DNA of 64,000 bases, from the NCBI RefSeq assembly GCF_024223415.1, contig NZ_CP100500.1; one strand, given 5' to 3'. Made by a program: the position numbers and the translations under genes. Shown one piece after another: positions 3,982 to 52,651 of this stretch (its first letter is position 1; each line of letters begins with the position of its first letter). The notes below the pieces were generated by a model, which was not told the DNA's origin, searched no databases, and worked only from the letters and a program-made list of their open reading frames with translations. The stretch is from Escherichia coli. GTDB taxonomy: Bacteria > Pseudomonadota > Gammaproteobacteria > Enterobacterales > Enterobacteriaceae.

Positions 3982-4046
3982 AAGAACACCAGAGCCTGCC
4001 AATGGCAGGCTCAGTTCGGATTGTCGGCAAAGTGCGCTTTGTTTAT

Positions 4047-4083: not shown

Positions 4084-4155
4084 AAGGGCTAACGTGCAGG
4101 TTTTTAGCTTCAGGTAATATTTGCGTACCTGCATTAGCAATGCCCTGTGATTTCT

Positions 4156-5058: not shown

Positions 5059-5077
5059 TACAATTATCTCTTCGGGT

Positions 5078-5581: not shown

Positions 5582-5593
5582 GAGCATCTCCAG

Positions 5594-6124: not shown

Positions 6125-6133
6125 CACGCCCCC

Positions 6134-27195: not shown

Positions 27196-30100
27196 CAGGC
27201 GTTCTCCTTATCTTGTGCAAAGAACGCCCAGGCCACTTTGTAGTCGTCTTCGCGATCTGGCTTGATAAACGGAGCCTGCCAGGTGACGGTGCGGCGCTCG
27301 CCTTCGTCGCTGCGGGTATAGTCATCAAAGGTGACGCTGACGGTACCGGTTTTCAGATGTTTGACATCATCCCAGCCGATGGCTTGATCGGTGCAGTCAC
27401 CGCCGGTCCACTCCGGGCTGTCGACGTTAAAGACAAAGCTGTTTTTCAGATCAGCTTTACGGGCGGTACGCGGCAGACCGACGCCCACCAGCCCTTTGCT
27501 TGGGGTAAAGATGATGCGGCCGTTTTGGTCGTACCAGGTGTCCGCTTCGTACTGGCGCATCACCGGGAACTGTACACGGTAAATGGTAAGCAGCTCTTCG
27601 AGAGTTAACCCCAGCGCCTGTGCCACCAGCACGTCGATTTCCACCAGCGCCTGACGACGACTGTAGTCGGAGCGTAAGGCGCAGTTACGCTGCCACTCTG
27701 GGGTCAGATTGGTGAAGAAATCTTGTGGCAGCAGCGGGAGATCGCGGCTCCAACGCTGGGTGTTGAAGTCTGGGGTGTAGCAGGATTGCCAGAGATCGGC
27801 GTAATCTTTCGTTAACACATTCAAAGCTAATGCTCTTGAGTTTGCACTCATTAGCTCAACATAAGGGAAGCCACGCAATGTTGATTCATAAACATCCGCC
27901 CGTCCTGTTGTTTTCAAATAAAAATCAGCCACTATTGAATGGCAAAATGCAGAGAAACTTAGCAGGTTTATTGGCTCTCTAAATGTTGTTGAGAGTACAG
28001 GGTGTATATGAGCAACGTGCTTTGGAACTATGCTGGATATCATCGAGCGTTCTGATGATGCCCCAAACATTCTCCGATTAACAAAACGATAATAATCCGT
28101 CACCTTCCTCGGCTCGTCTTCATCCTGCTCTTTCCACGAAACCCGTGGGGTGCGCTTTGCATACTCCTGTGCATCACATGCCGGAATGTAGTTAGTTCGC
28201 GGCAGGTAATCGTCGGGCAGGGTTAATAAATCAAGGCAATCATAATGGCTATTTGCCTCACAGAGAGCTCTTGGTGTCTTATTGAAAGGATTACCCACGA
28301 AGAAATGGGGACCAGACAATACCCATTGAGAAGCATCTTTTGGATACATTGTTTTACGCTCGATAGTGCCATCAATTTGCTGATTTGTTTCATGCCACAT
28401 TTCCAGAGAAAAATACTGGCCTTGCAAATCGCCTAATCGCTTCGGCTGATTGGCAAATTTTTCCAATACCGCGACAAGTTGCTCTGCGTGCAAAGCGGGA
28501 AGACGAGCCTGTAATGCTGGCGTGTCGGGTTCATCATACAAACGAGCAAATAAAGCTAGCTGCTCTTTCGTGACACGAATAAGCCTGGATTTATGACCTT
28601 TAGTATTCCATCGGCTATAGTAAACATCTTTTATATAACCTTCTTCCTTAATGCCACCAACCAATCCATCACCTGAATGCTCAAAACTCTCATCAAGAGT
28701 TGAAGGAATAAAAAGATTATTAATATTAATAAACTCCACGTCGTTCGATTTGGTCATAGAGTAAACATGTGTCCCAAATTTCATTCGACCGTGATCATTT
28801 GTTCCAACAAATAGAGAAAACTCATTTTGATATTGGCAATGTAGACGTAACCTTGGATAGATCTCTTCTCTGAAGAGCCCTCCCTTAGGATCGTCATATA
28901 CCCCCTCTGGGTGAACAAATCCTGCCACGCCTTTCTCTGCCCCCAGACGCCAGGCCTGAGGCAGGAAGCATTTATACAAGTTGGTCTGCACCCCGCGCAG
29001 TACCGGGTAGTTTTGCTGCGCATTGAGGAAGTTTTGCATCCCTTCACAGCCTTCATACTCGCTGCGCCAGGCCGCTTCCAGCGCCGGGATCTGGTTAAAG
29101 GTATCAATACGCAACGTTGCCAGCTTCGATGCACTCAGCTTACGCAGCACAAATTCCGGCTCGTAATCACCCAGCACGCCCGCTTCCTGCCATTCCACTT
29201 TCAGCCACGGCGGGTTTCCGAGCATCAGGTCAAAACCGCCGCGCTCGGCAAACAGGTCGCAGAACTCCAGATCCCAGTGGAAGAAACGGTGCTGCTTTCT
29301 CAGGGCATCGACAATCGCCAGACGCGGCAAATGGCGGAACAGCACATCGGTTTTCAGACGACCAGCAACGGAAAACAGCGAAGACTCTTCTCGCAGCAGG
29401 CCTTCTTCGGCAAACAGATCGCCAGTAGTGCGCTCCGCAACTTCAGTGACTTTTTCCGTAATCACAATCCCGTCGAGCAGGGTTTCAATCTCAAACAACC
29501 AGGTACCGCGATCCGGTAACTCATCGGCTTTGTCGATCGGCCAGAACCACAGCGCGCACCAGTAGTCCATCACCCAACGCAGCTTCTGGTAGGCGCTGTT
29601 ATCTTCAAGACGACCGCTAAAGGTTTCATCTTTACTGCTCAGCGAAGAACGCGTCTGCTCGCTGTTTTCTGCCGGCCACACCGGGTAGCTGTCGGCGGTT
29701 TTCAGACGTTCTGCTTTAAGTTGCTGGCGATAGGTGTTCCACAGTGCTTCCACCTTTTCGCTGATACGCTGCACATCAGCAATCTCATGCCCGGCAAAGC
29801 TTTTAATAAACTCTTTGCGCCAGCTGTCCAGCGCTTTGAAGTCATCCGGATAACGCTGCTTAACAGTTTTATCGCTGTAGTTAGCCATACCGCCGTCGGG
29901 CAGCAGGAAGTGGAAAATCTGCGTCTCTTCACGCGGCGTGTTCATCGCCAGTTCGACCGGCTCGCTGTTAAGCCAGCTAGGATCTTTGGCTTTTTTGTAG
30001 GTCAGTTCGCTCTTGTTGAACACCTGACGGCGCGCGCCCACCAGCGAGTTACCGCAGTGCAGCTGGTAACCAAACCACGGTACAAAGGCATCGCCACTGA

Positions 30101-32126: not shown

Positions 32127-32128
32127 GA

Positions 32129-35210: not shown

Positions 35211-38200
35211 TTATCCAGCGATAATATAACTCCTAAGGTCATTACCCGGGGCAACAGCTCGCGCTCGCGTGTTTGCCAGCCGTTCAACTTGCTGCGGTAC
35301 TCGCAGGGCAAAATCAAAGAAGGTATCTTCAATACAGCGCCAGTAGCTAAGCCCCATGTCGAGCAGGACATAATGCTGACTGCCATCGCTGAAGGTGACT
35401 GTCAGTTCTCGTCCATGCTCCGTACTCTGGTTATCCCCCGTTAACCAGCTAATTGCTCCCGGCCACGCAGGCCCCAGATATCCTTCTTCAAGTAAAGTGG
35501 TCACAACCTGCTGACGATCTTCCTCATTAAGCCACGCGTTATAGAGAGCGTCGTGTTGGCGAGAGTTGTAATCCAATTTTTTGACGCAAACAGTGAGGCT
35601 GGCGCGTTCCGCCATTCCCTGTTCAACCAGCTCGGTTAAGATTTCACCTAACAAACGCGCCGTGAATGGGCTATTAAGATAACGATCGCTGTACTCAACA
35701 TGCGTTATCTCTTTGTGGCGGGTAAATGCCTGCTTCCAGCCAGCGTGCTGTTGCGTGACTAACGACCAGAAACGCGAACCAAAACCTTCCAGCGGCCCGT
35801 CCAGTTGTTCACAGAGATTGATGCGCACCGCCCCGGTGGGTAAGGCGGGCAGTAAATCTTCTGCACTTAAGGTCTGACCCGAGAAGTTTTTTCCGGACGT
35901 TCCTTTAAGTGTCACTACTGGTGAAGACGCACTTTGTCCCCATAATTCACCAGGGGCAACGGTAGCGCTGTCGTCTGCGGCCCACTGTTGGCTTTGCCCT
36001 TCGCGAGTCACCTGCGCAAGCCAGCGCCCCTTTCCTTGCATGAGTTGCGCAGTGGCAATGGATTTCACTTGTAAGCGTCCTCCCGGCATCGCCGCCAACG
36101 CGGAAAGCTGATGTCTGGAGCTATCAGTTAAGTTTTCCAGCGGCGTGGCCACCAGCAACTCAACATTCCCACCGGAGGAGGCAAACTGGAGCAACTCTTT
36201 AAATAATGGCCATTGGGCAAAGTCCCACTGTTCCTGCGGCCCCGCAAGAACCAGCGAGCAGGAGTCATAAATCTCGCTGTTCAGGCATTGCGCAATACGT
36301 AAACTCAGAGGGTTAGTTTCAACCCGGCTACCATCGCCGAAGTACTGATATTCTGGCGCGAGGTTAAGTCGCTGCAACCGTACATTGGTAAGCAGGGTTA
36401 ATGCATGGTGACGATCTAATCTGTTGACATAATGCTGACTGTCGTAGCTGAGCAAGCAGTGGTGACAAAATTTATCGCAACTGCAATCGAGCAATTTTCT
36501 GGCGTAATTAAAGACATCAGCCCAATGGTCGATCAATTGCACTGCATAACCTGCACCACCCGCATTATTGTCGTATATGAAGATGGAATATCCGGTATAG
36601 CCATTGATATCGCGCGCTTGCTGCGTCGTCACGCCCAGCTCAGTATTTTCGATACCCAATTTATGCGCTAACCCTTCACGCAAAGCGACCGCAAGGGAAC
36701 GCGCGGCAACCTCATCACGGATCAACAGGCCATTATCATCATTGAGTTGCAGCTCAACCATATCTGTACGACTGCTATATCCCAACCACAGATCTTTATG
36801 CACATGACCGTGGCACAATTTATTGCTCCCCTGACGATCGTTACTGCCCCCTCGCAACAGGTAATGCGTATTTTCCCGCTCTGGGTTCTTTAGATTTTCA
36901 GGGGTACGCTGGGGTTGAGTTTGAGATTCTGCCCGACCACATGAGAGGCAAATTGCGTAGCCGTGCCCAAATTCCCCTTCACTGAAGTGGAACAATTCCC
37001 CACTATGGCTAAAACGGTAACGTCCTAGCCCAGCATCGGGTAAAGAAACCCACACCGAAGACGGTACAAGAACACGTGGATCTTTCCAAGGAAGTTGTGC
37101 AGGCATGGATACATCATTATGTGCCTGATAACGAATATCTGTCGCAAAACCAACAGGCTGTAAATAACGCTTCACATCAAGTTGCTGTATATCCGCTTTG
37201 CAGTGACTACATTCGACAGGACGGGTAGTACTGGTTGCCCCCGCACCACATTTACGGCAATGCCAGAACCACGGAATGTGATGATCGCCTGACAGCTCCT
37301 GCCCGCTGGCAAGTACCTTGCCAAGCATAATGCCCGAGGAACGATATACTTTTCCGCCCAATACCACATCTGCACCAGGCGCATACTCGCGTAATGCTGT
37401 AGGTAGATCACGGCTGGGCAATTTTTCAATACGACGAGAAAAGCTTTCTCCCCCTTCATTAGGGTCAGCCTGAGTAGCTTTTATTGCACGACGTTTTTCC
37501 AGCTCATCTGCCGTCAGATAATTGAAATTGACGACGCCAACCGGGAAACCATGCCCCGGCAGGAACGCTTCACTAATGAGTTTAGAAAACAGATATGCAC
37601 CGCGATAATCACGAAGCTGATAAGCGATGGCTTTACCTGCTGGCGTTTCTTCCCACGCGCTGTTATCCGCCTTCAACGCTTCGATATTTTCCAACAGTAT
37701 CGCAAGTTGGCTTCTCCAGCGGATATCAACCTGCTGCATCATTGCTTGTGTGCGGGTCAAGAGCTGGGTTGCCGTCAATGACTTCAGGACGGTTCCCTGA
37801 GTAAGGCGTTTAAGTTTATCCGCCAGCTCATCGGCCTGGTGATTTAACCAATGAAGAAAACGAAGACACTGGCTCTCATCACCTTCAAAGAACCATTTGC
37901 AACTCAGTTTTGTCGCATCAGGTACTTCAGCTCGTAAAAACAGACCTAAAACCAGGGCATTAACATGTCGTTGAACAATACTACTGCTCCCAAAACGAAC
38001 CCGTGGCGCACTGGCAGTAGTGTTGAACGCCCAGAGGGGGTCTTTGAATACCTCCATTCCATGCGCCGTGTTTTTACATAACGTAATGGCAGCAGATGCA
38101 CTCTCTCCACGACGCCCCGCGCGACCTGCACGCTGCAAATAATTTGCCGGCGCTGGAGGAACGTTGTTCATTGCCACCAAACTCATACCACCAATATCCA

Positions 38201-38693
38201 CCCCCATCTCCATGGTCGTGGAACAGTTCAGCACATTAACTTTGCCTGACTTAAATTGTTTTTCATTAAACTGGTTCTGCTCAGGCGTTCTCTGCGCAGA
38301 GTGTTCCTCCAGACGATACCAGCTATCTTTCAGGGCCAGTCGGTCGCTGCGAGTAGACCATAATCCTTCCTCGCGGGCATGTTGAATCAGCGCATTACTT
38401 TCCAGCCACTCCAGACGTTCTTCTCGGGCGATTTCTCCACCACCAGACAAACGCCAGTGACGTACAGGAAGCTCAGGCATTTCAATCAACACTGCTTTTT
38501 CAGGTGCAATTTCTTTGCTACCCGGCAAATACGGAGAGTATCCCAGCAACGTGACGTCTAACGCACGTCGAGTATAGGGGCAACGCCACACTTGCTTTGG
38601 ACTGTAAAATTCAGCCTGTTGTTTAATATCCAGCTGATAACCCGACTCAAACTGACGTAAGCAGGGTCGAATTGCATCCCAGACCTCAATCAT
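35211..38693 (-). CDS. C-terminal segment (1160 aa) of a DruE-like giant helicase; frame open upstream to the A7 tract at 38830-38836
   Basis: Helicase motif VI …ANYLQRAGRAGRRGE… near its N-terminus (matching the C-terminal lobe of the upstream ORF), then Cys clusters (CRKCGAG…CSHCKAD, CLSCGRAES, CSCDKFCHHC). Architecture parallels the 2113-aa protein. Confidence 0.7.
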   Translation of the reverse strand: MIEVWDAIRPCLRQFESGYQLDIKQQAEFYSPKQVWRCPYTRRALDVTLLGYSPYLPGSKEIAPEKAVLIEMPELPVRHWRLSGGGEIAREERLEWLESNALIQHAREEGLWSTRSDRLALKDSWYRLEEHSAQRTPEQNQFNEKQFKSGKVNVLNCSTTMEMGVDIGGMSLVAMNNVPPAPANYLQRAGRAGRRGESASAAITLCKNTAHGMEVFKDPLWAFNTTASAPRVRFGSSSIVQRHVNALVLGLFLRAEVPDATKLSCKWFFEGDESQCLRFLHWLNHQADELADKLKRLTQGTVLKSLTATQLLTRTQAMMQQVDIRWRSQLAILLENIEALKADNSAWEETPAGKAIAYQLRDYRGAYLFSKLISEAFLPGHGFPVGVVNFNYLTADELEKRRAIKATQADPNEGGESFSRRIEKLPSRDLPTALREYAPGADVVLGGKVYRSSGIMLGKVLASGQELSGDHHIPWFWHCRKCGAGATSTTRPVECSHCKADIQQLDVKRYLQPVGFATDIRYQAHNDVSMPAQLPWKDPRVLVPSSVWVSLPDAGLGRYRFSHSGELFHFSEGEFGHGYAICLSCGRAESQTQPQRTPENLKNPERENTHYLLRGGSNDRQGSNKLCHGHVHKDLWLGYSSRTDMVELQLNDDNGLLIRDEVAARSLAVALREGLAHKLGIENTELGVTTQQARDINGYTGYSIFIYDNNAGGAGYAVQLIDHWADVFNYARKLLDCSCDKFCHHCLLSYDSQHYVNRLDRHHALTLLTNVRLQRLNLAPEYQYFGDGSRVETNPLSLRIAQCLNSEIYDSCSLVLAGPQEQWDFAQWPLFKELLQFASSGGNVELLVATPLENLTDSSRHQLSALAAMPGGRLQVKSIATAQLMQGKGRWLAQVTREGQSQQWAADDSATVAPGELWGQSASSPVVTLKGTSGKNFSGQTLSAEDLLPALPTGAVRINLCEQLDGPLEGFGSRFWSLVTQQHAGWKQAFTRHKEITHVEYSDRYLNSPFTARLLGEILTELVEQGMAERASLTVCVKKLDYNSRQHDALYNAWLNEEDRQQVVTTLLEEGYLGPAWPGAISWLTGDNQSTEHGRELTVTFSDGSQHYVLLDMGLSYWRCIEDTFFDFALRVPQQVERLANTRARAVAPGNDLRSYIIAG

Positions 38694-38755: not shown

Positions 38756-41533
38756 TTAATAGCTTAATGACCCGGTTATAATGGCGATCGCGTATTTGTG
38801 GCCAAAGTTGATCACGTTTCTGCCCTTTGTTTTTTTATCTGGCCCCTGGAGCATTTTTACCGGGAAACGTGCCCCCATCCAGCGAGGGTATTGCTCGTTT
38901 TCGTAAAAAACGGCACTGTTTTCACGGATAAAGAAATCAAGAGTAATCTTCAATAAATTACGCCATTCCGCTAATTGCTTATCGGGATCGGGTAATAATG
39001 TCTTCCAGTCCTGCGGGCAGGTTGTAACTTTATCAATAAATGGATAGTGAATGGCTACCAGACCCAGACTTTCGAGGGTCCAGGCATTTTTAGGGCGGCG
39101 ACCAAACTCGCTGTATAAACAAAAATCTGCAAACTGTTGTTTAGTAAGATCAAGCCCAGACAATTCTTTAAAACTGCCTCTCATTCTATCGGCAAGGTCC
39201 ACACTGCCAACCAGCTGTTCAGACAGCGTTTGCCATGACATGGTTTTCTTCTGCTGATTGCCAGAGTTAACCTGAAGTATTTGCATCGCTTCAGCATGCT
39301 CCGGGCTTAAGGAACTCACCATCGGCTCAATAATTTTAAGTGACTGAATGTCCGCCGGGCTAAGCTCCTCATTCGCAGCCATCGCTTTTTTCAGCGCGTC
39401 GATGGAATTTTTTAAAGGGAGGACAGAAAACTGGCTAATAACTTTCTCTAACAGTGCACAGTGTGCCGGGCTGAGTTTTGCTGAAGGCTCTGTAATATTT
39501 GCCAGCTCCTGGTAACAAAGAGCTCGCAACGTCGCTTTATCGGCATCCTGCTGTAAGCGGGCTGAAATGCGAGCGGTACCCTGACGCGAATCCGTAAAGG
39601 TGAGCAAGCGTCGACCATTAAACGGTCCTAACTGCTCTTCTCTTGTTTGCGGTAATGGAGAAAACTCCAGCAGAGTAGGAATAATTTCATTTAAAAAAAA
39701 GGGCGCGCCGAGCCGAAGCGGACGGAATAAAGGATTATTTTTCCGTTGAGTGTCACCACAGCAAACACAAGCAAAGGAGTTATTGCGCCCCTCACCTCGA
39801 GATTCCGGTCTTAACAGGTTTATTTCATAGTGCTTTTGCGCTTCACTATCAATTTTCCCCGCCGTCGTTTCTTCCAGTGAAATGATATATTTTTCACCAT
39901 CGCTCGCAATCAGACGATCAAATTGAGAGTTATTGTCTAATTCGTCGTTGTCTTCATCTTCAGAATAAACATCTACATCAAGAGCAAACTCATCCACTTC
40001 GGCAGCGGCTGGTTGCGCTACCAACCAGTTCGTTCCATCACCGCGCATCTCCTCTTTGGCAGACAAATAAGCTGAACCACACCCGGAGCAACGTAAAACT
40101 TCAAATACCGGCGCTCCACAGTCACAATATTGGCGCTGCTCAAACCATACCTGACCAAATGGCCAGTCACTCTGATTTAATTCATGTGCTTTATGTGAGC
40201 ATTGTTTGTTTGAACATGCCCATAGACCCGCCAGTGTTCTGATAAACCCATGCATACGTAATGGCGTAAAAGCCAGTTCACCTTCTCGCGATCTTGCCAT
40301 TAGATCGAGGAGTTGCAGTAGCTCACGGTGATTAATATCTGGCCAGGTTCTTCTGGCAACATTGAGCAACTCACTCAAACGTACTGCCTGCCGTCCGGGA
40401 TGAGTTAACGCCTGACGCAATTGCTGGGCCACACGGTAATGACAAAGCTGTTGGTAAAGATCCTGAGGGCTCAGGGATTTAAGAGAAGTTAAAGATGTGG
40501 GGTATTCATGACGAATCAGCGACTCCGATACCCGCGGTATTTGTCGATAACCGCGAACCACTTTGACATCACGTTCTGTAACGCCCGCGAGATCAGCGAC
40601 AAATTTAGCAAGCTCCTTATTACCTTCAGGAGAGTCTTCACCAATAGTGGCAGAGGTCGCGATAATCTGCACAGGTTTATCTGTGCCGGGTCCAACATTG
40701 AAAGCCTGCATAACACGACGTAAAAGCAGCGCTAACTCAGCAGCCTGAGAACCAATATAACTATGGGCTTCATCCAGGACGATATACTTTAACATCCCCT
40801 GAGACTTTTCGATGATTGGGGCATCTTTACGACGAATCAGCATATATTCCAGCATGGTGGTATTCGTCACCATGATGGAAGGTGGTGCTTCATAAATGGC
40901 TTCCCGACTCAAAGCTTGTTCAGGTACTTTCAACTGATCTTCCTGAACTTCGTATTTGGTATGCCGGGTTTCGCCATTATATAGCGCGAAGCGTATTTTC
41001 CCCTTAAATCCGCGCGTCCATTCGCGAAGCCGCTCCTGTTGGCTGTTAATTAATGCATTTAACGGATACAAGAAAATAGCTTGTGTCCCTGTTAGTGACT
41101 GGCGGGTCGATTTTTGCTGACGAATAAGATCTTCCAGAACCGGTACCATAAAGCATTCTGTTTTCCCGGATCCCGTACCGCTGCTCACTAACAAGGATTT
41201 TTTGTCTTCCAGAATCGTTCGCCACGCAGTAAGTTGATGACGAAATGGCACTGGCGCTTTGCTCAATGCATCAACCAGCGGGCTGGAGATCAGCTTGTCC
41301 CGCAAATCCTCCATTGTTTCATCCGCAGGCATCCAGCCGAATGTACTTTCGAATACCGGGTCTGCAAGCAGTGACCCCTCCTGACCGGGAGGCTGAAAAT
41401 ATTGTGATTCCAGATAATGAGTCAACGACTTGCTCCGCAATGCCAACTGACTTACCACCGACCTCACCGCACGCTGATGAAGCTGATTTAGAAGTGGCGC
41501 ATAATGCAGTTGCTGAACGTCCATCAATGACAT
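38756..41533 (-). CDS. N-terminal segment (925 aa) of a DruE-like giant helicase; ends 2 codons... stop shortly after an A7 tract
   Basis: Motif I VSSGTGSGKTECFMVPVL, motif II VLDEAHSYIG, internal Cys clusters as in the 2113-aa paralog. It is in a different frame from the downstream 1160-aa ORF by exactly one nucleotide. Confidence 0.7.
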   Translation of the reverse strand: MSLMDVQQLHYAPLLNQLHQRAVRSVVSQLALRSKSLTHYLESQYFQPPGQEGSLLADPVFESTFGWMPADETMEDLRDKLISSPLVDALSKAPVPFRHQLTAWRTILEDKKSLLVSSGTGSGKTECFMVPVLEDLIRQQKSTRQSLTGTQAIFLYPLNALINSQQERLREWTRGFKGKIRFALYNGETRHTKYEVQEDQLKVPEQALSREAIYEAPPSIMVTNTTMLEYMLIRRKDAPIIEKSQGMLKYIVLDEAHSYIGSQAAELALLLRRVMQAFNVGPGTDKPVQIIATSATIGEDSPEGNKELAKFVADLAGVTERDVKVVRGYRQIPRVSESLIRHEYPTSLTSLKSLSPQDLYQQLCHYRVAQQLRQALTHPGRQAVRLSELLNVARRTWPDINHRELLQLLDLMARSREGELAFTPLRMHGFIRTLAGLWACSNKQCSHKAHELNQSDWPFGQVWFEQRQYCDCGAPVFEVLRCSGCGSAYLSAKEEMRGDGTNWLVAQPAAAEVDEFALDVDVYSEDEDNDELDNNSQFDRLIASDGEKYIISLEETTAGKIDSEAQKHYEINLLRPESRGEGRNNSFACVCCGDTQRKNNPLFRPLRLGAPFFLNEIIPTLLEFSPLPQTREEQLGPFNGRRLLTFTDSRQGTARISARLQQDADKATLRALCYQELANITEPSAKLSPAHCALLEKVISQFSVLPLKNSIDALKKAMAANEELSPADIQSLKIIEPMVSSLSPEHAEAMQILQVNSGNQQKKTMSWQTLSEQLVGSVDLADRMRGSFKELSGLDLTKQQFADFCLYSEFGRRPKNAWTLESLGLVAIHYPFIDKVTTCPQDWKTLLPDPDKQLAEWRNLLKITLDFFIRENSAVFYENEQYPRWMGARFPVKMLQGPDKKTKGRNVINFGHKYAIAIITGSLSY

Positions 41534-44500
41534 ACTCCTGCTTGTTCAAAATAATATTGATAGATTACACCTAATTGCTGTGGGGCTTGCTGATAGTGAA
41601 ATTCAAAAAGCGCAGACAGTTGATGTATCAGGTTATTATCTTTTTGGGTTAACAGCGCTGCGACTAACATCAAATTAAAACGTTTTTCAAGCCGTGAGTG
41701 ATATTTATCTTCAATCCAAAGCTTATTAAAAACAGATTTTAACTCTGGAGTAATAGCACTAGACCAAAGTTCTTTAGGGAAGATACTGATACGCCCAAAG
41801 CTGTCGGGGTTCCTTAATAGCATCTGTTTAGCTTCATTAAACTGCTCACGACTAACAGTTGGCAATACATCACAACCGGTTGGTAGGCTCTCACTATATG
41901 TAAGTAACATATTCGCAATCGGAGCCAGCCGACGATCGATATGTGCACGATGGTTCATAAAAGCAATAAAGGGTTGCAATATATGTAATGCTAATGTTTT
42001 ATCGTTAATCTGTTTCTCCAGATAAGTCCAACATTTTTGGAAAACATCTTTCCAGATTGAAACGGGAATCCATCCCCATGAAAAGGGTAATTCTTCCTGT
42101 ATATCATAAATCGTATCGCTATCACCAGAAAGACATGATGATATTAACAATTGAACAACCACGCGGTAATTACTCGAAATACCTCTGAACAAGTCCAGAT
42201 CCAGCAAGGATAAGCCATTATTCATTTTGTATTTCTTAATATACTCTGTTAATAAACAGCAATAATTTTGCAATGGGTTGTTATCTATTTCAAAAATTAG
42301 CTCATTAAAATTTTTTTTGCGCTGTTCTGGGTCTGCTTCGCATAGAGCATTTAGTAATAAATCATTTGTCTGCAATACAGGTAGCATCCATTTAATTACT
42401 GGTGCAATGCGAGCTGTACCATCAAGTTTTCCCACAATTAACCATGGACTATCCTGAACATTCAGAGCTGAAAGATCATAAGCAAACTCATCTTTTTTTA
42501 ACAATGATATGTGTAAGCCAGGATTCTTAAGAGAAATAGCATCAACAACCAGTTCGTCTATTCTATTTGCAGGAAAAACAACAGAATTTTTTATATCAAC
42601 CAGTAACCCTTGATCGTGTTCAATAAAACTACCATCGTAGCGTTTAATATTGAGTGTTGCTTTATCCTTTCCAAATCTGTCAGAGTAAAAATCAACACAT
42701 AATGTACTATTGCTGTTCCATGCACATGCCAGCATAGCATTTAGCAAATTATAGTTCTCATAAAGTGAAATTTGTTGTAATTTGTCATTGCGTCCTGATA
42801 AAAGAGGAAGGTCGGCATGTAAATAGCGGAATTTTTCAGCTACTGGATTTTCATCCAATAACTCGATATTAAGATATCCTCTTCCAGCACATGATATGGT
42901 TAATAACTCAGCATCTATTCCATGCAAATGTGCTATAGATGCCACACCATCAAAATGAACAGAACCATCATTAGTTACAAATCGGCCACCGCTAACCGGC
43001 TTAGGTAATAATAGTTTAAGATTAGAACCATCTTTCCAGGAGACCCGTAAATCAACGGTATTTTCCAGCATCAGCGATGAATTATAATAAATAGCACACT
43101 CGTTTTGTGAATAATCGGACTTAAGTGTTACTTTTTCATTGTTTAAATATTTATCAATTCTAGTATCCGTTATACCAGAAAGCATAATAATGCCTTGCTG
43201 AGCACTCTCAGGTATAATATTAATATCGAAGTCTGCTGGTAAAACTACAACTTTACCGCTAAATAAAACCTCATCATTAACTATTCGCCGGACTTCTATC
43301 TGTCCTTTTGGCATTTCTGATGCGACAGAATACCAGGCATTGTTACCTGAACGAATGGAACGCCAAAAAAGTTCTTTCTCCGGTACAATGCCATATTGCA
43401 GATCCTTTTTCCAACCGATCTTCGGCCAGGCTCGATGGACAGGATAATCCGATTTAACCAGTTCAACTTCTGTCGATTTAATATAATATTCAATCGCAGA
43501 ATCATAAAGTTGCTGGGTGCGAATTGTACAAACTGCACCATCATGTAAAACAACGCTAAATACTCCACTTATTTTAGTTAAGCTGCGTTCACTGTTTTTC
43601 AGCAACCTTGGGATATCAAACTCACCTTCTCCACTAATATCTAAATGGCTATTTTTCGGTAGCGAAATAAACAGAGCATTTAGCCTGGAACTCACAGACC
43701 CCATACCAACAAGTTTTAGCTGCGATTCACTCTCATTCATCGCTTCAAAAACCCAGGGAAGTTCTTCAGTAAGTTCATAACCGCCTTTTGGAATTGTGTG
43801 ACCTAACAGAATTGGACCTTCATGAAGCGACAATGAGATTTCGGCCATTGCATCTGCACCAGAGAGTTTTTGCATCGCAATAGGTAATAACTCGACCCGC
43901 CAATCTTGCTGCTCATAACGGCTTAGCATTGCCAACCTTGCCCCGCCATTTTTCCATTTTCCTGAAATGATGAGTCGGGTCTGCTCCGGCTGAATATGGC
44001 ATTCAAACAAAGAGGTTAACTGTTCTGTACGCATTGTGGCCGGGAATCGGAACCGGGCATCGCAATACCAACTGTCATCAACATCGACCCAGATTCTTTC
44101 AACCTGAAGACTACTTGCACTGCGTATTTCAGAAGATTGAGATAGTAATCGCCTTACAATCTCTGCAGCATTCGCTTCGGGGAGAACGAGTGGAAGTTTA
44201 AGATGCCAGTCTGGAGAGAGCTTACGTAATGCAGAAACGGGATCACTGCTTTGAGGAGGATGCTCACTAAGTAATCGGCAGAGAGTCTCGCAGAATTCAC
44301 CGGCTATTTCATAGACCAGTTCGTTTTGCATTGTGACAGGAATCGTATCGCCTAATTCTTGTGCAATTTTAGCGGCAGGATATTGAGATGATTGCCCACG
44401 AAGCGCCTGATATATCCTTCTGAAATAGGTAATCAAATAACCGCTCTCATTTTCAATCATGCGGATAGGCAAACCACCTTCACAAGCCAGTGTATGCAGA

Positions 44501-44883
44501 TAACCCGAAGCTTGTCCCAGGTTTCTTATCTTTCTTTTCCAGTAGCGAATGCCATCATTAACCAGCTTCTGTCGATGAACATACGGAACTTTCCAGTTAA
44601 TAGAATCTAAAATTGTGTCCCATTTAGGGTGTCCGACCGTATGAGTCCGGCGGATAAACTCTGCGGCATATATGCTAAATAGAACATCGCTATAGGAAAT
44701 GAATATCGTTCTTGGATAACTACGGGGGGCATATGTACGCAGTAGTTCTGCCAAACTTTCGTACTCTGTATCAGTACAACGGTAAGCATATAACGCCCGT
44801 CCATCAGCTCCGGATAATGAACGGCGACTAAAAAACATGTTAAGCCATTGCAAAAGTGGGTTAACTGGAGTTTTCACAAGCAA
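41524..44883 (-). CDS. 1119-aa protein of unknown function (DruH-like partner of the giant helicase)
   Basis: Large ORF with no motif recognisable by eye. Its stop overlaps the start of the 925-aa helicase ORF by ~10 nt, implying co-translation. Position and size fit the partner gene of Druantia type III. Confidence 0.5.
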   Translation of the reverse strand: MLVKTPVNPLLQWLNMFFSRRSLSGADGRALYAYRCTDTEYESLAELLRTYAPRSYPRTIFISYSDVLFSIYAAEFIRRTHTVGHPKWDTILDSINWKVPYVHRQKLVNDGIRYWKRKIRNLGQASGYLHTLACEGGLPIRMIENESGYLITYFRRIYQALRGQSSQYPAAKIAQELGDTIPVTMQNELVYEIAGEFCETLCRLLSEHPPQSSDPVSALRKLSPDWHLKLPLVLPEANAAEIVRRLLSQSSEIRSASSLQVERIWVDVDDSWYCDARFRFPATMRTEQLTSLFECHIQPEQTRLIISGKWKNGGARLAMLSRYEQQDWRVELLPIAMQKLSGADAMAEISLSLHEGPILLGHTIPKGGYELTEELPWVFEAMNESESQLKLVGMGSVSSRLNALFISLPKNSHLDISGEGEFDIPRLLKNSERSLTKISGVFSVVLHDGAVCTIRTQQLYDSAIEYYIKSTEVELVKSDYPVHRAWPKIGWKKDLQYGIVPEKELFWRSIRSGNNAWYSVASEMPKGQIEVRRIVNDEVLFSGKVVVLPADFDINIIPESAQQGIIMLSGITDTRIDKYLNNEKVTLKSDYSQNECAIYYNSSLMLENTVDLRVSWKDGSNLKLLLPKPVSGGRFVTNDGSVHFDGVASIAHLHGIDAELLTISCAGRGYLNIELLDENPVAEKFRYLHADLPLLSGRNDKLQQISLYENYNLLNAMLACAWNSNSTLCVDFYSDRFGKDKATLNIKRYDGSFIEHDQGLLVDIKNSVVFPANRIDELVVDAISLKNPGLHISLLKKDEFAYDLSALNVQDSPWLIVGKLDGTARIAPVIKWMLPVLQTNDLLLNALCEADPEQRKKNFNELIFEIDNNPLQNYCCLLTEYIKKYKMNNGLSLLDLDLFRGISSNYRVVVQLLISSCLSGDSDTIYDIQEELPFSWGWIPVSIWKDVFQKCWTYLEKQINDKTLALHILQPFIAFMNHRAHIDRRLAPIANMLLTYSESLPTGCDVLPTVSREQFNEAKQMLLRNPDSFGRISIFPKELWSSAITPELKSVFNKLWIEDKYHSRLEKRFNLMLVAALLTQKDNNLIHQLSALFEFHYQQAPQQLGVIYQYYFEQAGVCH

Positions 44884-45094
44884 CCTGCCTTCCTTTGATA
44901 CAATTCGTAACAGGTTACTATCATCATAAAAAAGCTCAACCCGATGAACTCGCTAAAAATGAGACAAATCATTTATATCTCGAAAAAACTTGTTACAATC
45001 ATGAGCGCTACACCGAACTTAACCATATAAATTATGTGTGTTTTGTTTATTTTTTAAACGATTACAACTATCCATTATTTACACAGGTATCAAA

Positions 45095-46747
45095 ATGTTA
45101 GCGCAGCTTTTTGAGCAGTTGTTTCAATCGATAGACTCTACACTGATCACCAATATTTTCATCTGGGCTGTTATATTCGTATTTTTATCAGCGTGGTGGT
45201 GTGACAAAAAAAATATACATAGTAAGTTTAGAGAATATGCTCCAACCTTAATGGGGGCATTAGGTATTCTGGGTACTTTCATTGGTATTATTATTGGTTT
45301 ACTCAATTTTAATACCGAAAGTATTGATACCAGCATCCCCGTATTATTAGGTGGCCTAAAAACAGCATTCATTACAAGCATTGTAGGTATGTTTTTTGCC
45401 ATTTTATTTAATGGAATGGATGCTTTCTTTTTTGCCAATAAACGAAGTGCGTTAGCAGAAAATAACCCTGAATCTGTTACACCTGAACATATCTATCATG
45501 AATTAAAAGAGCAGAACCAGACTCTGACTAAATTAGTCTCGGGTATTAACGGTGATAGTGAAGGTTCTCTTATTGCTCAAATAAAATTACTACGTACTGA
45601 GATTAGCGATTCCTCGCAGGCACAATTAGCTAATCACACTCATTTCAGTAATAAGCTTTGGGAACAACTTGAACAATTTGCAGATCTAATGGCAAAAGGT
45701 GCTACAGAACAAATTATTGATGCTTTGCGACAAGTCATTATTGATTTTAATCAAAATTTAACTGAACAGTTTGGTGAAAACTTTAAAGCTCTTGATGCCT
45801 CTGTAAAAAAACTTGTTGAGTGGCAGGGAAATTATAAAACGCAAATTGAGCAGATGTCAGAACAATATCAACAAAGTGTCGAGTCCCTGGTTGAAACAAA
45901 AACTGCGGTTGCAGGGATTTGGGAAGAATGTAAAGAAATTCCTCTGGCTATGTCTGAACTGCGTGAAGTGCTTCAGGTGAACCAACATCAAATCAGCGAA
46001 CTCTCCCGCCATTTAGAAACCTTTGTCGCCATCCGCGATAAAGCTACAACCGTATTACCTGAAATACAGAACAAAATGGCTGAAGTGGGTGAACTGCTGA
46101 AATCCGGAGCTGCAAATGTTAGTGCATCTCTTGAGCAAACCAGCCAGCAAATACTTCTTAATGCAGATTCAATGCGCGTTGCCCTGGATGAAGGTACCGA
46201 AGGATTCAGACAATCGGTTACCCAAACACAACAAGCATTTGCCTCGATGGCACATGATGTCAGCAATTCCTCCGAAACCTTAACCAGCACGTTAGGTGAA
46301 ACAATTACTGAAATGAAACAAAGTGGTGAAGAATTCCTGAAATCACTAGAGTCGCACTCGAAAGAATTGCATAGAAATATGGAACAAAATACGACGAATG
46401 TGATTGATATGTTCAGTAAGACTGGTGAAAAGATTAACCATCAACTATCCAGTAATGCCGATAATATGTTTGATTCAATCCAGACATCATTTGATAAGGC
46501 AAGTGCAGGGCTGACTTCTCAAGTCAGAGAATCAATTGAAAAATTTGCTCTATCCATCAACGAGCAGTTACATGCTTTTGAGCAAGCAACTGAACGTGAA
46601 ATGAACCGTGAAATCCAATCATTAGGTAATGCTCTGCTTTCAATCAGCAAAGGTTTTGTCGGTAACTATGAAAAACTTATTAAAGATTACCAAATAGTTA
46701 TGGGGCAGTTACAAACATTAATTTCTGCTAATAAACATCGCGGGTAA
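45095..46747 (+). CDS. zorA: Zorya ZorA-like (MotA/ExbB-like membrane domain with long coiled-coil tail)
   Basis: N-terminal TM helices (…LMGALGILGTFIGIIIGLLNF…, …FITSIVGMFFAILFNG…) then ~400 aa of heptad-rich low-complexity sequence. The start is taken at ATG 45095 (AGG RBS); the ORF track uses an upstream GTG at 45038. Confidence 0.75.
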   Translation: MLAQLFEQLFQSIDSTLITNIFIWAVIFVFLSAWWCDKKNIHSKFREYAPTLMGALGILGTFIGIIIGLLNFNTESIDTSIPVLLGGLKTAFITSIVGMFFAILFNGMDAFFFANKRSALAENNPESVTPEHIYHELKEQNQTLTKLVSGINGDSEGSLIAQIKLLRTEISDSSQAQLANHTHFSNKLWEQLEQFADLMAKGATEQIIDALRQVIIDFNQNLTEQFGENFKALDASVKKLVEWQGNYKTQIEQMSEQYQQSVESLVETKTAVAGIWEECKEIPLAMSELREVLQVNQHQISELSRHLETFVAIRDKATTVLPEIQNKMAEVGELLKSGAANVSASLEQTSQQILLNADSMRVALDEGTEGFRQSVTQTQQAFASMAHDVSNSSETLTSTLGETITEMKQSGEEFLKSLESHSKELHRNMEQNTTNVIDMFSKTGEKINHQLSSNADNMFDSIQTSFDKASAGLTSQVRESIEKFALSINEQLHAFEQATEREMNREIQSLGNALLSISKGFVGNYEKLIKDYQIVMGQLQTLISANKHRG

Positions 46748-46753
46748 TCGATC

Positions 46754-47461
46754 ATGGATAAGATTATAGGGAAACAATTACCTAAAAAAGATCAAGATAA
46801 TGAACATTGGGTATCCATGTCAGACCTAATGGCAGGGCTGATGATGGTTTTTATGTTCATATCTATTGCTTATATGCACTACGTACGTATTGAAAAAGAA
46901 AAAATTAAAGAAGTTGCCGTAGCCTACGAGAATGCTCAGTTACAGCTTTATAATGCTCTGGATATTGAGTTTGCAAAGGATTTACAAGACTGGGATGCAG
47001 AGATCGATAAACAGACTCTGGAGGTTCGATTTAAATCACCGGATGTTTTATTTGGCTTAGGAAGCACAGAGCTAAAACCAAAGTTTAAACTCATTCTTGA
47101 CGACTTCTTTCCTCGCTACCTAAAAGTTCTAGATAATTATCAGGAACATATTACTGAAGTCCGCATTGAAGGTCACACAAGTACTGACTGGACAGGAACA
47201 ACGAATCCTGATATTGCTTATTTTAATAATATGGCACTATCGCAAGGTCGTACACGTGCAGTATTACAATACGTTTATGACATAAAAAATATCGCGACAC
47301 ACCAACAATGGGTTAAAAGTAAATTTGCCGCAGTAGGTTATTCATCTGCACATCCCATTCTTGATAAAACCGGCAAGGAGGATCCTAATCGCTCTCGTCG
47401 TGTCACCTTCAAAGTTGTAACAAATGCCGAGTTGCAGATTAGAAAGATTATTCAGGAGTAA
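46754..47461 (+). CDS. zorB: Zorya ZorB-like (MotB-like membrane anchor with OmpA-type peptidoglycan-binding domain)
   Basis: N-terminal TM (…LMAGLMMVFMFISIAYM…) and OmpA-like motif …RIEGHTSTDW…NMALSQGRTRAV…NRSRRVTFKV. Confidence 0.75.
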   Translation: MDKIIGKQLPKKDQDNEHWVSMSDLMAGLMMVFMFISIAYMHYVRIEKEKIKEVAVAYENAQLQLYNALDIEFAKDLQDWDAEIDKQTLEVRFKSPDVLFGLGSTELKPKFKLILDDFFPRYLKVLDNYQEHITEVRIEGHTSTDWTGTTNPDIAYFNNMALSQGRTRAVLQYVYDIKNIATHQQWVKSKFAAVGYSSAHPILDKTGKEDPNRSRRVTFKVVTNAELQIRKIIQE

Positions 47462-47464
47462 GAG

Positions 47465-48568
47465 ATGAAATTATCTATCGACCTTTCAGAACTTATTCAA
47501 TTAGGGAAGAAAATGTTACCAGAAGGAGTCGATTTTTTTCTGGATGAATCCCCTATTGACTTTGATCCTATAGATATTGAGTTATCCACGGGTAAAGAAG
47601 TTAGTATCGAAGATCTTGACCCTGGTAGCGGGCTTATCTCTTATCATGGCCGCCAGGTTCTTTTATATATTCGGGACCATTCAGGGCGTTATGATGCGGC
47701 TATCGTAGATGGCGAAAAAGGAAAACGTTTTCATATTGCCTGGTGCAGAACTCTTGATGAAATGCGCCATAAAAATCGATTTGAAAGGTATCATGCAACT
47801 AACCGCATAGATGGTTTATTCGAAATTGATGATGGTTCAGGTCGGAGCCAGGATGTTGATTTACGGGTATGTATGAATTGCCTCGAACGACTTAATTATA
47901 AAGGAAGTATTGATAAACAACGAAAAAGAGAGATTTTTAAATCATTCTCATTAAATGAGTTTTTTTCAGATTATAGTACCTGTTTTCGTCATATGCCTAA
48001 GGGTATCTATGACAAAACAAATAGTGGGTATGTCGAAAACTGGAAGGAAATATCTAAAGAAATACGAGAAAAGGCCAATTATGTTTGTAATGATTGTGGC
48101 GTGAATTTATCAACCGCCAAAAACTTGTGCCATGTCCATCATAAAAATGGCATCAAATATGATAATCACCATGAAAACCTTCTTGTTCTGTGCAAGGATT
48201 GCCATCGAAAACAGCCCCTCCACGAAGGTATATTCGTTACCCAAGCTGAGATGGCTATCATTCAACGTTTACGTTCCCAACAAGGGCTATTAAAAGCAGA
48301 ATCCTGGAATAAAATATATGACCTGACTGATCCATCAGTGCATGGTGATATTAATATGATGCAACATAAAGGCTTTCAACCTCCTGTTCCTGGGTTAGAT
48401 CTTCAAAACTCAGAACATGAAATTATTGCAACCGTAGAAGCTGCATGGCCAGGCCTTAAAATTGCAGTTAACCTTACTCCCGCCGAAGTCGAAGGATGGA
48501 GAATATATACCGTGGGTGAGCTGGTTAAAGAAATACAAACCGGAGCCTTTACGCCAGCAACTTTGTAA
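47465..48568 (+). CDS. zorE: Zorya type II effector ZorE-like HNH endonuclease
   Basis: HNH motif CNDCGVNLSTAKNLCHVHHKNGIKYDNHHENLLVLCKDCH. It follows zorB by 3 nt. Confidence 0.7.
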   Translation: MKLSIDLSELIQLGKKMLPEGVDFFLDESPIDFDPIDIELSTGKEVSIEDLDPGSGLISYHGRQVLLYIRDHSGRYDAAIVDGEKGKRFHIAWCRTLDEMRHKNRFERYHATNRIDGLFEIDDGSGRSQDVDLRVCMNCLERLNYKGSIDKQRKREIFKSFSLNEFFSDYSTCFRHMPKGIYDKTNSGYVENWKEISKEIREKANYVCNDCGVNLSTAKNLCHVHHKNGIKYDNHHENLLVLCKDCHRKQPLHEGIFVTQAEMAIIQRLRSQQGLLKAESWNKIYDLTDPSVHGDINMMQHKGFQPPVPGLDLQNSEHEIIATVEAAWPGLKIAVNLTPAEVEGWRIYTVGELVKEIQTGAFTPATL

Positions 48569-48753: not shown

Positions 48754-49032
48754 CTTTGTAGACAGGAGACAGTCACAATGAATAAAACAATAAATTGATG
48801 TCGCACGCGCCGATGGGCATGGCGGGTAATGTAACTTTTGTACACAACGGCAAGGCTTATGTTACTGGCGGTGTTAACCAGAACATCTTCAATGGCTATT
48901 TTGAAGATCTCAACGATGCTGGAGAATATTTAGCAGCTATAGACAAGATCAATGCCTATTATTTCGACAAAAAAGCAGAAGATTATTTCTTCAATAAGTT
49001 TTTGTTGTCTTTTGATCCCTCAACACAGCAAT
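48754..49032 (+). pseudogene. diverged nanM remnant (first ~37 bp of nanM fused to an internal ~240-bp nanM segment), preceded by a nanC-promoter-like GGTATA repeat at 48687-48700
   Basis: 48754-48790 matches 15079-15115 (gtagacaggagacagtcacaatgaataaaacaataa). 48791-49032 matches 15460-15700 at roughly 90 percent identity by eye. Same orientation as the intact nanM. Confidence 0.8.
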
Positions 49033-49107
49033 GGATCTTCACTTGCAGGCTTGAACAGCAGAAAATTTGCGAGCATGATCGCAATTATTTCACTGCCAGG
49101 GATATCA

Positions 49108-49980
49108 ATGGCTTCCAGTAAATCGCTACAGCAGGCAATTGCCAACATAAAAATCTGGCACAAGGGTGAACAGCGCGCGCCGCATAAGCCATTGTTATTG
49201 CTATACGTATTAGCGGGATACCTGAATGGACATCCACGCCTTTTCGATTATGGATCGGAAATCTACGAACCTCTGCACAGTTTACTGGAACGTTTTGGGC
49301 CACAGCGTTCACAGTACCGACCTGATATGCCGTTCTGGCGATTACAAGGCGACGGATTCTGGCAATTACACAATGCCGAGCTTTGCTCAACAGCAGGGAG
49401 CAGCCGACAACCGCCAGTGAAGGAACTGAACGAATACCACGTTGCAGGCGGTTTCGATGAACAGCACTACGCCCTGGTAACCGGCAATAAAAAACTCATC
49501 AATACTCTGGCGCAACAGATACTCGAAGCGCACTTCACCGAGAGTATTCAGGAAGAAATTGCTGACGAGCTGGGTTTTGATCTCCAGCAAATCCGTAAAC
49601 AGCGCGACCCGTTATTTCGCAAAAATGTATTACGCGCTTATAACTACCAGTGCGCGATATGTGGCTTTAATATGCGCCACGACGACACCACCGTCGCGCT
49701 GGAAGCGGCGCATATAAAATGGAAACAGCACGGCGGTCCTTGTGAAATTCCTAATGGCCTGGCGCTTTGCGCAATTCACCATAAAGCCTTTGATAAAGGA
49801 TCGATTGGCCTGGATGAAAATATGCGGGTACTGGTCTCGGATGCGGTAAACGGCGGAGGGATCGTTGAGAGATTATTCTGGGATTTTGACGGGAAAACTA
49901 TTGCGTTGCCGCAGGTGCGTAAAAATTACCCTTATGAGGGGTTTGTGGAGTGGCATCGGGAAGAGGTTTTTAGGGGGTGA
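49108..49980 (+). CDS. HNH endonuclease with unidentified N-terminal domain (candidate modification-dependent restriction enzyme)
   Basis: C-terminal HNH motif YQCAICGFNMRHDDTTVALEAAHIKWKQHGGPCEIPNGLALCAIHHKAFD. The start is taken at ATG 49108 (MASSKSLQQAIANIKIW) with AGGGA RBS, because the ORF-track start at 48952 lies in the nanM remnant. Confidence 0.6.
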   Translation: MASSKSLQQAIANIKIWHKGEQRAPHKPLLLLYVLAGYLNGHPRLFDYGSEIYEPLHSLLERFGPQRSQYRPDMPFWRLQGDGFWQLHNAELCSTAGSSRQPPVKELNEYHVAGGFDEQHYALVTGNKKLINTLAQQILEAHFTESIQEEIADELGFDLQQIRKQRDPLFRKNVLRAYNYQCAICGFNMRHDDTTVALEAAHIKWKQHGGPCEIPNGLALCAIHHKAFDKGSIGLDENMRVLVSDAVNGGGIVERLFWDFDGKTIALPQVRKNYPYEGFVEWHREEVFRG

Positions 49981-50602: not shown

Positions 50603-52651
50603 CTAATCATTTCCCTTACGAATATATGGGCCAAAAGCCCAAGAATCATAATAAGGGTGATGGACTAGTTTTTCATTAAATCGAACACTATAAGTTAATT
50701 TTTTTATATTTTTACGTACAGCATTAATACTGGGCAAAGAGGAAAGATAATCTATAAACTTATCGATAGTGATTTCCCCTTCGCAACACTCAAACCCATC
50801 AATGATATTTTTCGCCATTTTTCCATTTTCATTTGTTTGATATATCACTCCAGGTATTCGTTGAAAAAAACTAGATAATGCATATTTGTCCGCTACATAT
50901 GTATCATCCACATGATATTTCCCACCGAGCATAGTTGTAGTAACAATAAGCTTATACACACCTTTGGGTTGCCATGTTGATGGTAGTTCGAATTCTTTAA
51001 TGATCACATCAAGATGATTAAGATAATGTTCAGAAATTCGATTTATTTGTTGAAAATAAGAACGCATAAATTTATTATTATGATCATGTATTAATGAGCT
51101 ATCTCCAACGATGTTACACATTTGCTGATAGTATTTACCATAATATATTGGTTGACCATTTGATTTTAGTTCTGTAAAAATCAAACAATCATCCAGGAGA
51201 ATCACGCAATCGCACTGATAATTAGCATGAGCATCAATTGGAGAAGCTTTAATCCCCGCATCACGAACTTGTTTTATAAATTGTTGCTCATGAAATCGCC
51301 CTTTACTTGCTTGAGAAATTTTTTTGGAACCAAATAATGACATTAGAGAGCGAGTCACTGAGCTATTTGCTATTAATGCAGGCATTAAGCATAAACCGTC
51401 CATACAGGGAATAAATGGGCAATCATTAAGATCATGTGATTTTGAATTGAAGGTAAAATAATCTATCAGTTTTTTTGCTGCATCTGCTGCAATCCCCTTA
51501 CGTTGAAAGAATGATAACCAACTCTCACGGCTTTTTATGATCAGCCAGCGATCCAACTGTAGGGGTATAGGTTTTGTCGATGAAAATCTTTTGCTCATTT
51601 CTTCTTTAGATAACTCGACTAAACATTGATAAGCGTGCACCCAATTAAATAATGATATATTCCCATATTCTTCATGAAGGTCATCAGGAGACATATTTTC
51701 CAACTCGCTTAGATGAAATGAGCTAAAAACGCCATCAGAATTTAAGTAAGATGGCATATGATCCTTTACCCAACTATTTAGATGAAAATGTTTGTTACTA
51801 AATTCATGAACTTCGCTATATAGATGTGACGCTCTCATCATTAGTCTATTTCTTGCAATCTCATAATCTCGGTATAAACAAAAACTATCAACCTCAAGAG
51901 AGTAAATGTTATTATCCAATTTTGTAAATACTGCACTACTTAGTCTGAAAAAGTCTCTTACTCTGCTTAATGAGTCAAAAACATTCCACTCATTAAGGTA
52001 CCCTCCCATTGAAAGCAAGGTTTGTTTATTCACACAAGAAGTTAGTTTCAATGGCTCATGAGTCCGTAAATAAGAAAATATTCTTCCGGTGTAATTGGCT
52101 ACCTCATCAAATGCCCTATCGATAACTCGAAAATATTCGATATCAGGTTCAGCATGAATATTAATATTTTCAGAAACGATAAATAATGGAAAAATCCTCT
52201 TCATTTTTTTAGGATCATTGACCACAACCAAGGATGATAATGATGATAAAAACATCTCACAAAACATGATGAGATTAAGTATTAATGCATGTGATTTTTT
52301 TGTATTTTTACGCCAAATACCAGCACATTTTGTAGCCGCAAAGAAAGAATTATTTATATCATGCATAATTTTACATTGACTCTCGAACTCAGAAATTAGT
52401 TCAATGTTATCAGGAAATGAGTTTACTAGCTCATTAATACATTTTTTGAATGTATTGTTATACTCAACTTCAGTCTGAACTGAAAATCTATTATAATAGA
52501 TGGAAGATATTCTCAGCACATCCAAGGCGATATCTATACTAATATCATCTCTTTTTATGTACTCACAAAAAAAAGAACAAAACTGTTTCGGGTCGTTAGC
52601 AAGATTACTAATTCTAGTGGTATCATAAACTTTTTCCATTTTTCCATACAT
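50603..52651 (-). CDS. 682-aa hypothetical protein, very AT-rich, possible C-terminal PD-(D/E)xK-like patch
   Basis: Long uninterrupted ORF in the most AT-rich stretch of the window, adjacent to leuX. No recognisable P-loop. C-terminal segment …YQCDCVILLDDCLIFTELK… has the hydrophobic-D…E-x-K spacing of PD-(D/E)xK nucleases (weak, by eye). Confidence 0.6.
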   Translation of the reverse strand: MYGKMEKVYDTTRISNLANDPKQFCSFFCEYIKRDDISIDIALDVLRISSIYYNRFSVQTEVEYNNTFKKCINELVNSFPDNIELISEFESQCKIMHDINNSFFAATKCAGIWRKNTKKSHALILNLIMFCEMFLSSLSSLVVVNDPKKMKRIFPLFIVSENINIHAEPDIEYFRVIDRAFDEVANYTGRIFSYLRTHEPLKLTSCVNKQTLLSMGGYLNEWNVFDSLSRVRDFFRLSSAVFTKLDNNIYSLEVDSFCLYRDYEIARNRLMMRASHLYSEVHEFSNKHFHLNSWVKDHMPSYLNSDGVFSSFHLSELENMSPDDLHEEYGNISLFNWVHAYQCLVELSKEEMSKRFSSTKPIPLQLDRWLIIKSRESWLSFFQRKGIAADAAKKLIDYFTFNSKSHDLNDCPFIPCMDGLCLMPALIANSSVTRSLMSLFGSKKISQASKGRFHEQQFIKQVRDAGIKASPIDAHANYQCDCVILLDDCLIFTELKSNGQPIYYGKYYQQMCNIVGDSSLIHDHNNKFMRSYFQQINRISEHYLNHLDVIIKEFELPSTWQPKGVYKLIVTTTMLGGKYHVDDTYVADKYALSSFFQRIPGVIYQTNENGKMAKNIIDGFECCEGEITIDKFIDYLSSLPSINAVRKNIKKLTYSVRFNEKLVHHPYYDSWAFGPYIRKGND

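Follow-up and report, generated by a model that had tools for sequence, protein, structure and literature searches.

Two conserved promoter-like blocks in the gap between the head-to-head Druantia type III and Zorya type II operons of an Escherichia coli defence island

When two defence operons lie back to back, the short DNA between their first genes raises the question of whether both are controlled from one shared element or each from its own. We addressed this question for the interval between a 1119-aa minus-strand gene and a plus-strand zorA in a 64,000-nt stretch of an E. coli genome (contig NZ_CP100500.1), which is referred to as the window and whose positions are used throughout. In the initial annotation, this interval was described as a divergent, back-to-back promoter region from which a "Druantia-like" system and a Zorya system may be controlled jointly.

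The identities of the two flanking genes are confirmed by full-length PADLOC matches. The ORF 41524-44883 (minus strand, 1119 aa) encodes DruH, with the DruH3 profile covered over positions 1-1117/1117 (E = 0), and DruH homologues carry PF27201 and PF27205 (YjiT_N and YjiT_2nd domains). The system labelled "Druantia-like" is more precisely named Druantia type III (druH-druE), with DruH encoded directly upstream of druE. The DruE profile is matched jointly by two ORFs downstream of druH on the minus strand (38756-41533 and 35211-38693, PADLOC) of 925 and 1160 aa, compared with the intact 2104-aa gene of EDL933. The frame is broken by a 1-nt deletion, relative to EDL933, in a T8 run near 38829, and an intact DruE helicase-nuclease of ~2100 aa is not encoded in the window. 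This split could reflect the inactivation of Druantia III in this strain, with druE as a pseudogene, or a homopolymer sequencing error. On the other side of the gap, ZorA2, ZorB2, and ZorE are matched with E = 5e-302, 2e-104, and 1e-176, respectively, and their genes form a co-directional Zorya type II cluster with intergenic gaps of 6 and 3 nt.

The locus corresponds to O-island 172 of E. coli O157:H7-type strains. In EDL933, this island contains Zorya II (z5894-z5896), Druantia III, and ARMADA II, with zorABE divergently transcribed from druHE (10.1101/2025.09.22.677730), and its annotated neighbors are tRNA-Leu and integrases. Over the gap and its surroundings (801 bases), the sequence is matched without a mismatch in EDL933, Sakai, and numerous further strains (100% identity). 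In the comparison of 24604-64000 with EDL933, the island is 99.2% identical, while the flanking core genes (tRNA-Leu/ahr, yjgR) are ~97.2-97.6% identical; therefore, the window comes from a different E. coli lineage with the same island. It differs from EDL933 in the frameshifted druE and in the right flank, beyond ~49950. The back-to-back layout of druHE and zorABE has already been described for this island, and the promoter anatomy proposed here is a modest annotation.

The EDL933 preprint contains no promoter mapping and used the lac promoter for complementation (10.1101/2025.09.22.677730), while the studies on the synergy between Zorya II and Druantia III used pBAD expression, with the promoters not mapped. 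A study of druE (Z5898) in motility regulation reports nothing on the druH promoter, an RpoS transcriptome paper contains Z5887 as the sole gene from this island, and our literature search on the zorA promoter retrieved nothing relevant. In a microarray time course in Sakai, druH (ECs5259) was transcribed in exponential phase and dropped ~4-fold at entry to stationary phase (PMC2241611). A Cappable-seq start-site study of EDL933 also exists (PMC10469882).

The gap extends over 44884-45094, 211 bp between the TTG start of druH (44883-44881, minus strand) and the ATG of zorA2 (45095, plus strand). The PGAP/RefSeq annotation of the identical EDL933 sequence gives the same two start codons and the same 211-bp gap, located at 5412557-5412767 of NZ_CP008957.1, where the strands are inverted relative to the window. 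The druH TTG aligns with an ATG in Yersinia, Serratia, and Pantoea RG18, and two features anchor the zorA ATG, namely the conserved N-terminal sequence MLAQLFE and an invariant ACAGG 8 nt upstream. The GC content is 31.8%, compared with 38-39% in the flanking genes and 47% in the whole window, which places the gap among the lowest ~4% of 211-nt windows. The ~210 bp of AT-rich DNA separating the two head-to-head genes is therefore accurately described. According to the ORF map and the annotation, no other gene lies between the divergently transcribed druH and zorA, and the length of the gap is typical of divergent gene pairs (PMC4469952). A 68-aa ORF (44895-45101) was rejected as a gene because of frame-breaking indels and no upstream conservation in the alignment, and a longer zorA ORF starting at GTG 45038 was discarded because its upstream region contains frame-breaking indels and no conservation. 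When 44000-46000 was searched against Rfam with a permissive threshold, there was no match in the gap and only a chance-level one inside zorA (E = 0.69).

Given the head-to-head arrangement, transcription of druHE and of zorABE must begin either in the gap or within the opposite operon. Of 514 E. coli genomes, 512 share the gap at an identity of 99% or more, which leaves no footprinting signal; therefore, relatives from other genera were collected. Head-to-head druH/zorA loci with gaps of 210-219 bp were found in Yersinia proxima, a group of Enterobacterales (L082-L085), Hafnia, Lelliottia, Pectobacterium, and Pantoea RG18. The resulting alignment consists of seven head-to-head loci from different Enterobacterales, representing only three to four independent lineages. 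As a neutral reference, we used the 4-fold degenerate sites of zorA, which are saturated (identity of 0.32-0.45 between the window and the others) and of which 10 of 129 (7.8%) are invariant in the seven taxa; the P values of the blocks are binomial against this proportion. In the gap, 59 of the 211 columns are invariant and these are clustered (Table 1), with zero indels between blocks 1 and 2 in all seven taxa. Measured against the degenerate sites, such clustering of invariant columns far exceeds what neutral evolution would leave.

Table 1. Features of the druH/zorA gap and of the zor operon (window positions); invariant columns refer to the seven-taxon alignment.
Feature	Positions	Strand	Invariant columns	P	Basis or remark
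druH-proximal stretch	44884-44907		4/24		
Putative druH ribosome-binding site, AAGGAAGG	44888-44895	-			4-7 nt before TTG; read from sequence
Alternative promoter candidate TTGATA-18-TATCAT	44895-44924	+			Best consensus match in the gap, 10/12
Block 1, candidate druHE promoter	44908-44939	-	22/32	~1e-17	Conservation and PWM
Linker	44940-44959		0/20	n.s.	
Block 2	44960-45001		22/42	~4e-14	
Dyad TGA-N6-TCA	44960-44971				Centre 44965.5; overlaps/adjoins upstream edge of the weak zor -35
Block 2 core, candidate zorABE promoter	44972-44999	+			Conservation and PWM
Leader	45002-45082		5/81, with indels	n.s.	
Predicted zorA leader, ~89 nt	45006-45094	+			Unconserved except ACAGG (45083-45087)
zorA Shine-Dalgarno region	45083-45094		6/12	~1e-4	
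zorA2	45095-46747	+			PADLOC full-length; PGAP name in EDL933
zorB2	46754-47461	+			PADLOC full-length; PGAP name in EDL933
zorE	47465-48568	+			PADLOC full-length; PGAP name in EDL933

A consensus promoter scan of the gap gave 5 matches, compared with 4.1 +/- 1.6 in shuffled controls, which is not above chance; the promoter argument therefore rests on conservation. All seven sequences were scanned on both strands with a position weight matrix (PWM) built from textbook sigma-70 hexamer frequencies, and a single positionally conserved promoter candidate was recovered for each direction, their -35 hexamers 32 bp apart and the two facing away from each other. The gene identities, the gap, the conserved blocks, and their modular distribution are thus observed, and from them we infer the promoter role of the blocks, the strand served by each, and the start sites.

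On the druH side, the block 1 candidate consists of a -35 TTGAGC (44939-44934), a 16-bp spacer, and a -10 TAACCT (44917-44912). It is the sole minus-strand candidate conserved in all seven taxa (PWM mean 8.0, minimum 7.8) and also the top minus-strand candidate in the window sequence alone (9.1). Its -10 reads TAA(C/T)(C/G)T across taxa and, in the window, matches the consensus at only 3/6 positions, but T-12, A-11, and T-7 are kept. The druH transcript is predicted to start near 44905, with a leader of ~22 nt including the likely ribosome-binding site, in a stretch that is poorly conserved across genera. Two other minus-strand matches, TTTAAA-16-CATAAT (45058-45031) and CTAACA-16-AATAAT (45101-45074), were rejected as conserved druH promoters because they are specific to E. 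coli and located in an unconserved stretch.

On the zorA side, block 2 contains a weak -35 TTTATA (44972-44977) and, after a 16-bp spacer, an extended -10 TGtTACAAT (44991-44999), with a PWM mean of 7.4 and a minimum of 6.4 in the seven taxa. TGnTACAAT is the only plus-strand candidate conserved in 7/7 taxa, and the broader pattern TTGnTAnAnT does not vary across eight loci, some of which lack druH, and occurs in 11 of 12. The start of zorA is predicted at ~45005-45007, and folding of the putative leader against shuffled sequences indicated no stable structure (z = -0.63). The extended -10 is lost in a relative with 66% identity, and an examination of the zorA upstream DNA of 53 distant Zorya II loci showed no conservation of this motif outside the Enterobacterales clade. 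The zor candidate resembles the galP1-type extended -10 promoters in the TG placed one base before a near-consensus -10, in the poor -35, and in a partly conserved dyad ~41 bp upstream, which here is only a weak CRP match. The gap also contains a direct repeat, TTGATACAAT (44895-44904) and TTGTTACAAT (44990-44999), 95 bp apart, each of which resembles an extended -10 when read on the plus strand. Conservation of the first copy, which overlaps the druH leader, is confined to the E. coli and Enterobacter/Hafnia lineages.

The distribution of the two blocks across loci bears directly on the question of shared control. Zorya II loci lacking druH, namely those of S. fonticola (hipBA upstream), S. 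nevei (divergent hsdM), and Erwinia, show the same degree of conservation in block 2, and the homology of Zorya-only loci to the window begins at about the linker (44940-44959), the junction between the Druantia-side and Zorya-side modules. Block 1 was found only where druH is present, the upstream DNA of two Druantia loci without Zorya and of a tandem locus (L097) being too divergent to align with it. In Serratia sp. PL17, the linker is interrupted at the equivalent of 44950-44958 by a ~1054-bp IS (4797-5850 of that locus), accompanied by a 9-bp target duplication, and despite this IS, block 1 remains beside an intact druH (1119 aa) and block 2 beside an intact zorA (550 aa). The same IS/zor junction is found upstream of zorA in two Erwinia Zorya loci. 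In Pantoea sp. GD03673 (~5700-6000 of that locus), only ~100 nt of the druH 5' end are left, the gap and zorABE are intact, and the -35 of block 1 has decayed from TTGAGC to TTCAGC, which resembles the remnant of a head-to-head unit that has lost Druantia by deletion. In the tandem locus (1-6857), zorABE is followed by druHE after a 336-bp gap (DruH 49% identical), and in many distant gammaproteobacterial loci (eleven recorded) a DruE-like helicase lies downstream of zorE on the same strand. Therefore, the association of Zorya and Druantia does not depend on the shared gap. As a separate observation, the K. pneumoniae IncFIB plasmid NZ_CP031815.1 (2212-4000 of that locus) keeps druHE, while its zorA is truncated by IS1; a ~395-bp fragment is inserted at the equivalent of 45020-45023, within the predicted zorA leader.

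Our preferred interpretation, to which we assign a probability of about 0.62, is that the gap is the seam of two defence modules, each with its own sigma-70 promoter, placed back to back. In this scenario, druHE would be fired leftwards from block 1 (TTGAGC-16-TAACCT, start ~44905) through a ~22-nt leader with a ribosome-binding site, and zorABE rightwards from the extended -10 of block 2 with its weak -35 (start ~45006) through a ~89-nt unstructured leader. With ~100 bp between the predicted starts and 32 bp between the -35 hexamers, RNA polymerase could occupy both promoters simultaneously. No regulator gene was found in the conserved druH/zorA neighborhood across the head-to-head relatives, and constitutive or housekeeping-type expression thus appears most likely. 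Two autonomous promoters, rather than one shared control element, are the best reading of the gap, since the distribution of each block is that of its own operon, the linker lacks conservation and is interrupted by an IS in Serratia, and a tandem arrangement also occurs. Consequently, the two halves of the original proposal separate. A back-to-back promoter region is likely, considering the head-to-head layout, one conserved candidate per direction, and the maintenance of the gap in Enterobacterales, but the modular evidence argues against joint control of the two systems. Indeed, co-regulation from a shared operator would be marked by a site kept only with both partners or by a shared regulator, and neither was found at this locus.

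This interpretation leaves part of block 1 poorly explained. The invariant TA (44919-20), AT (44923-24), and TGTTA (44908-12) fall in the spacer and discriminator of the minus-strand candidate, and a plus-strand promoter or a protein binding site would better explain them. Block 1 could thus be a bidirectional promoter, with adjacent opposite-strand -10 hexamers, TAACCT (44917-44912, minus) and TATCAT (44919-44924, plus), forming one shared RNA-polymerase entry site that drives druHE leftwards and a long-leader zorABE transcript rightwards, with block 2 as a second promoter of Zorya itself. The plus-strand TTGATA-18-TATCAT, which overlaps block 1, scores highest in E. coli (PWM 10.4, compared with 9.1 for the minus-strand candidate), its -10 pattern TAnnAT is invariant in the seven taxa and covers the bases unexplained by the minus-strand promoter alone, and it would start at ~44931, giving a zorA leader of ~164 nt. 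Such promoters are common in E. coli, with divergent starts 7-25 bp apart, mostly 18 (Warman et al., 10.1101/2020.01.31.928960), and block 1 resembles them in its adjacent -10-like hexamers on both strands (10.1101/2020.01.31.928960; PMC12825309). However, Yersinia and Pantoea RG18 have lost the -35 of this candidate, which scores 3.5-3.7 there, the predicted starts of the block 1 pair are ~26 bp apart, just beyond the defining range (those of the main pair being ~100 bp apart), and in loci that lack block 1, block 2 alone suffices for Zorya II, hence we consider a bidirectional block 1 unlikely. More doubtful still is the idea that such bidirectionality transcriptionally couples the two synergistic systems in an indel-free head-to-head unit. 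If true, the druHE:zorABE expression ratio would be set by polymerase binding at block 1, with binding in one direction either excluding or stimulating that in the other. The layout also resembles the back-to-back divergent sigma-70 promoter pairs of E. coli described as topologically linked units (PMC4469952), with two candidate promoters on opposite strands within ~100 bp and their -35 elements opposed across a short linker; supercoiling coupling at this gap is a conjecture, and a shared regulator site is not among the features found here.

Alternatively, both operons could be co-regulated by a host factor that binds in the DNA separating the two promoters, such as a CRP-type dimer at the TGA-N6-TCA dyad. 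The predicted zor and dru starts are ~41 and ~61 bp, respectively, from the dyad centre, which would fit the class II and class I positions of activators at CRP promoters, and activator-assisted promoters typically pair a weak -35 with an extended -10. All seven head-to-head loci share the TGA half-site, which is also present in 9 of 11 close relatives (ZorA at least 77%), extending to TGTGA in Lelliottia and to CGTGA in Pectobacterium and S. fonticola. In contrast, the right half-site TCA is kept in 7 of these 11 relatives and lost in S. nevei and Erwinia, and against the CRP core TGTGA-N6-TCACA the dyad matches at only 6/10 positions in E. coli (4-8/10 in relatives), a score equalled or bettered at 1.9% of window positions. 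The dyad also behaves as part of the Zorya module, staying where druH is absent and being parted from druH by the ~1 kb IS in Serratia PL17, and the tandem locus shows that the pairing does without a shared gap; a shared regulator of this type is therefore quite improbable. Least probable of the readings weighed here is that the gap serves mainly as an H-NS nucleation site for xenogeneic silencing, holding both operons low together. H-NS prefers AT-rich acquired DNA, and the gap combines a very low GC content with a foreign island beside tRNA-Leu and integrases. Nevertheless, AT-richness extends over all of druH-zorE and does not single out the gap, and the sharp, position-specific invariant blocks resemble promoter elements and not a general AT-tract. 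In EDL933, Druantia III defence is weak in the native host compared with heterologous expression, which is compatible with silencing, but defence by each of the three systems is measurable in the native strain (10.1101/2025.09.22.677730).

The same difference between EHEC and heterologous expression (10.1101/2025.09.22.677730) makes the native expression level appear relevant to defence. With native promoter positions at hand, the pair could be rebuilt with its native stoichiometry and the contribution of the head-to-head arrangement to the synergy tested. A seam between self-sufficient modules fits the picture of defence islands built from portable, individually promoted cassettes, and introduces no new principle.

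The surroundings of the two operons contain further genes of interest. Downstream of druE, 18743-34987 (minus strand) encodes four large proteins: a DrmD-like SNF2 helicase, a type IIG-like methyltransferase, and two helicases, one of 2113 aa, DruE/YprA-like with an HNH tail, and one GajB-like UvrD. These four genes correspond to ARMADA II armABCD as named in the EDL933 preprint (10.1101/2025.09.22.677730). On the right, a 682-aa ORF without a PADLOC match (50603-52651, minus strand) lies in DNA of ~32% GC. Directly after zorE, 48952-49980 (plus strand) encodes a 342-aa HNH protein, and the shorter overlapping gene in EDL933 is annotated as a phosphorothioated-DNA-binding restriction endonuclease.
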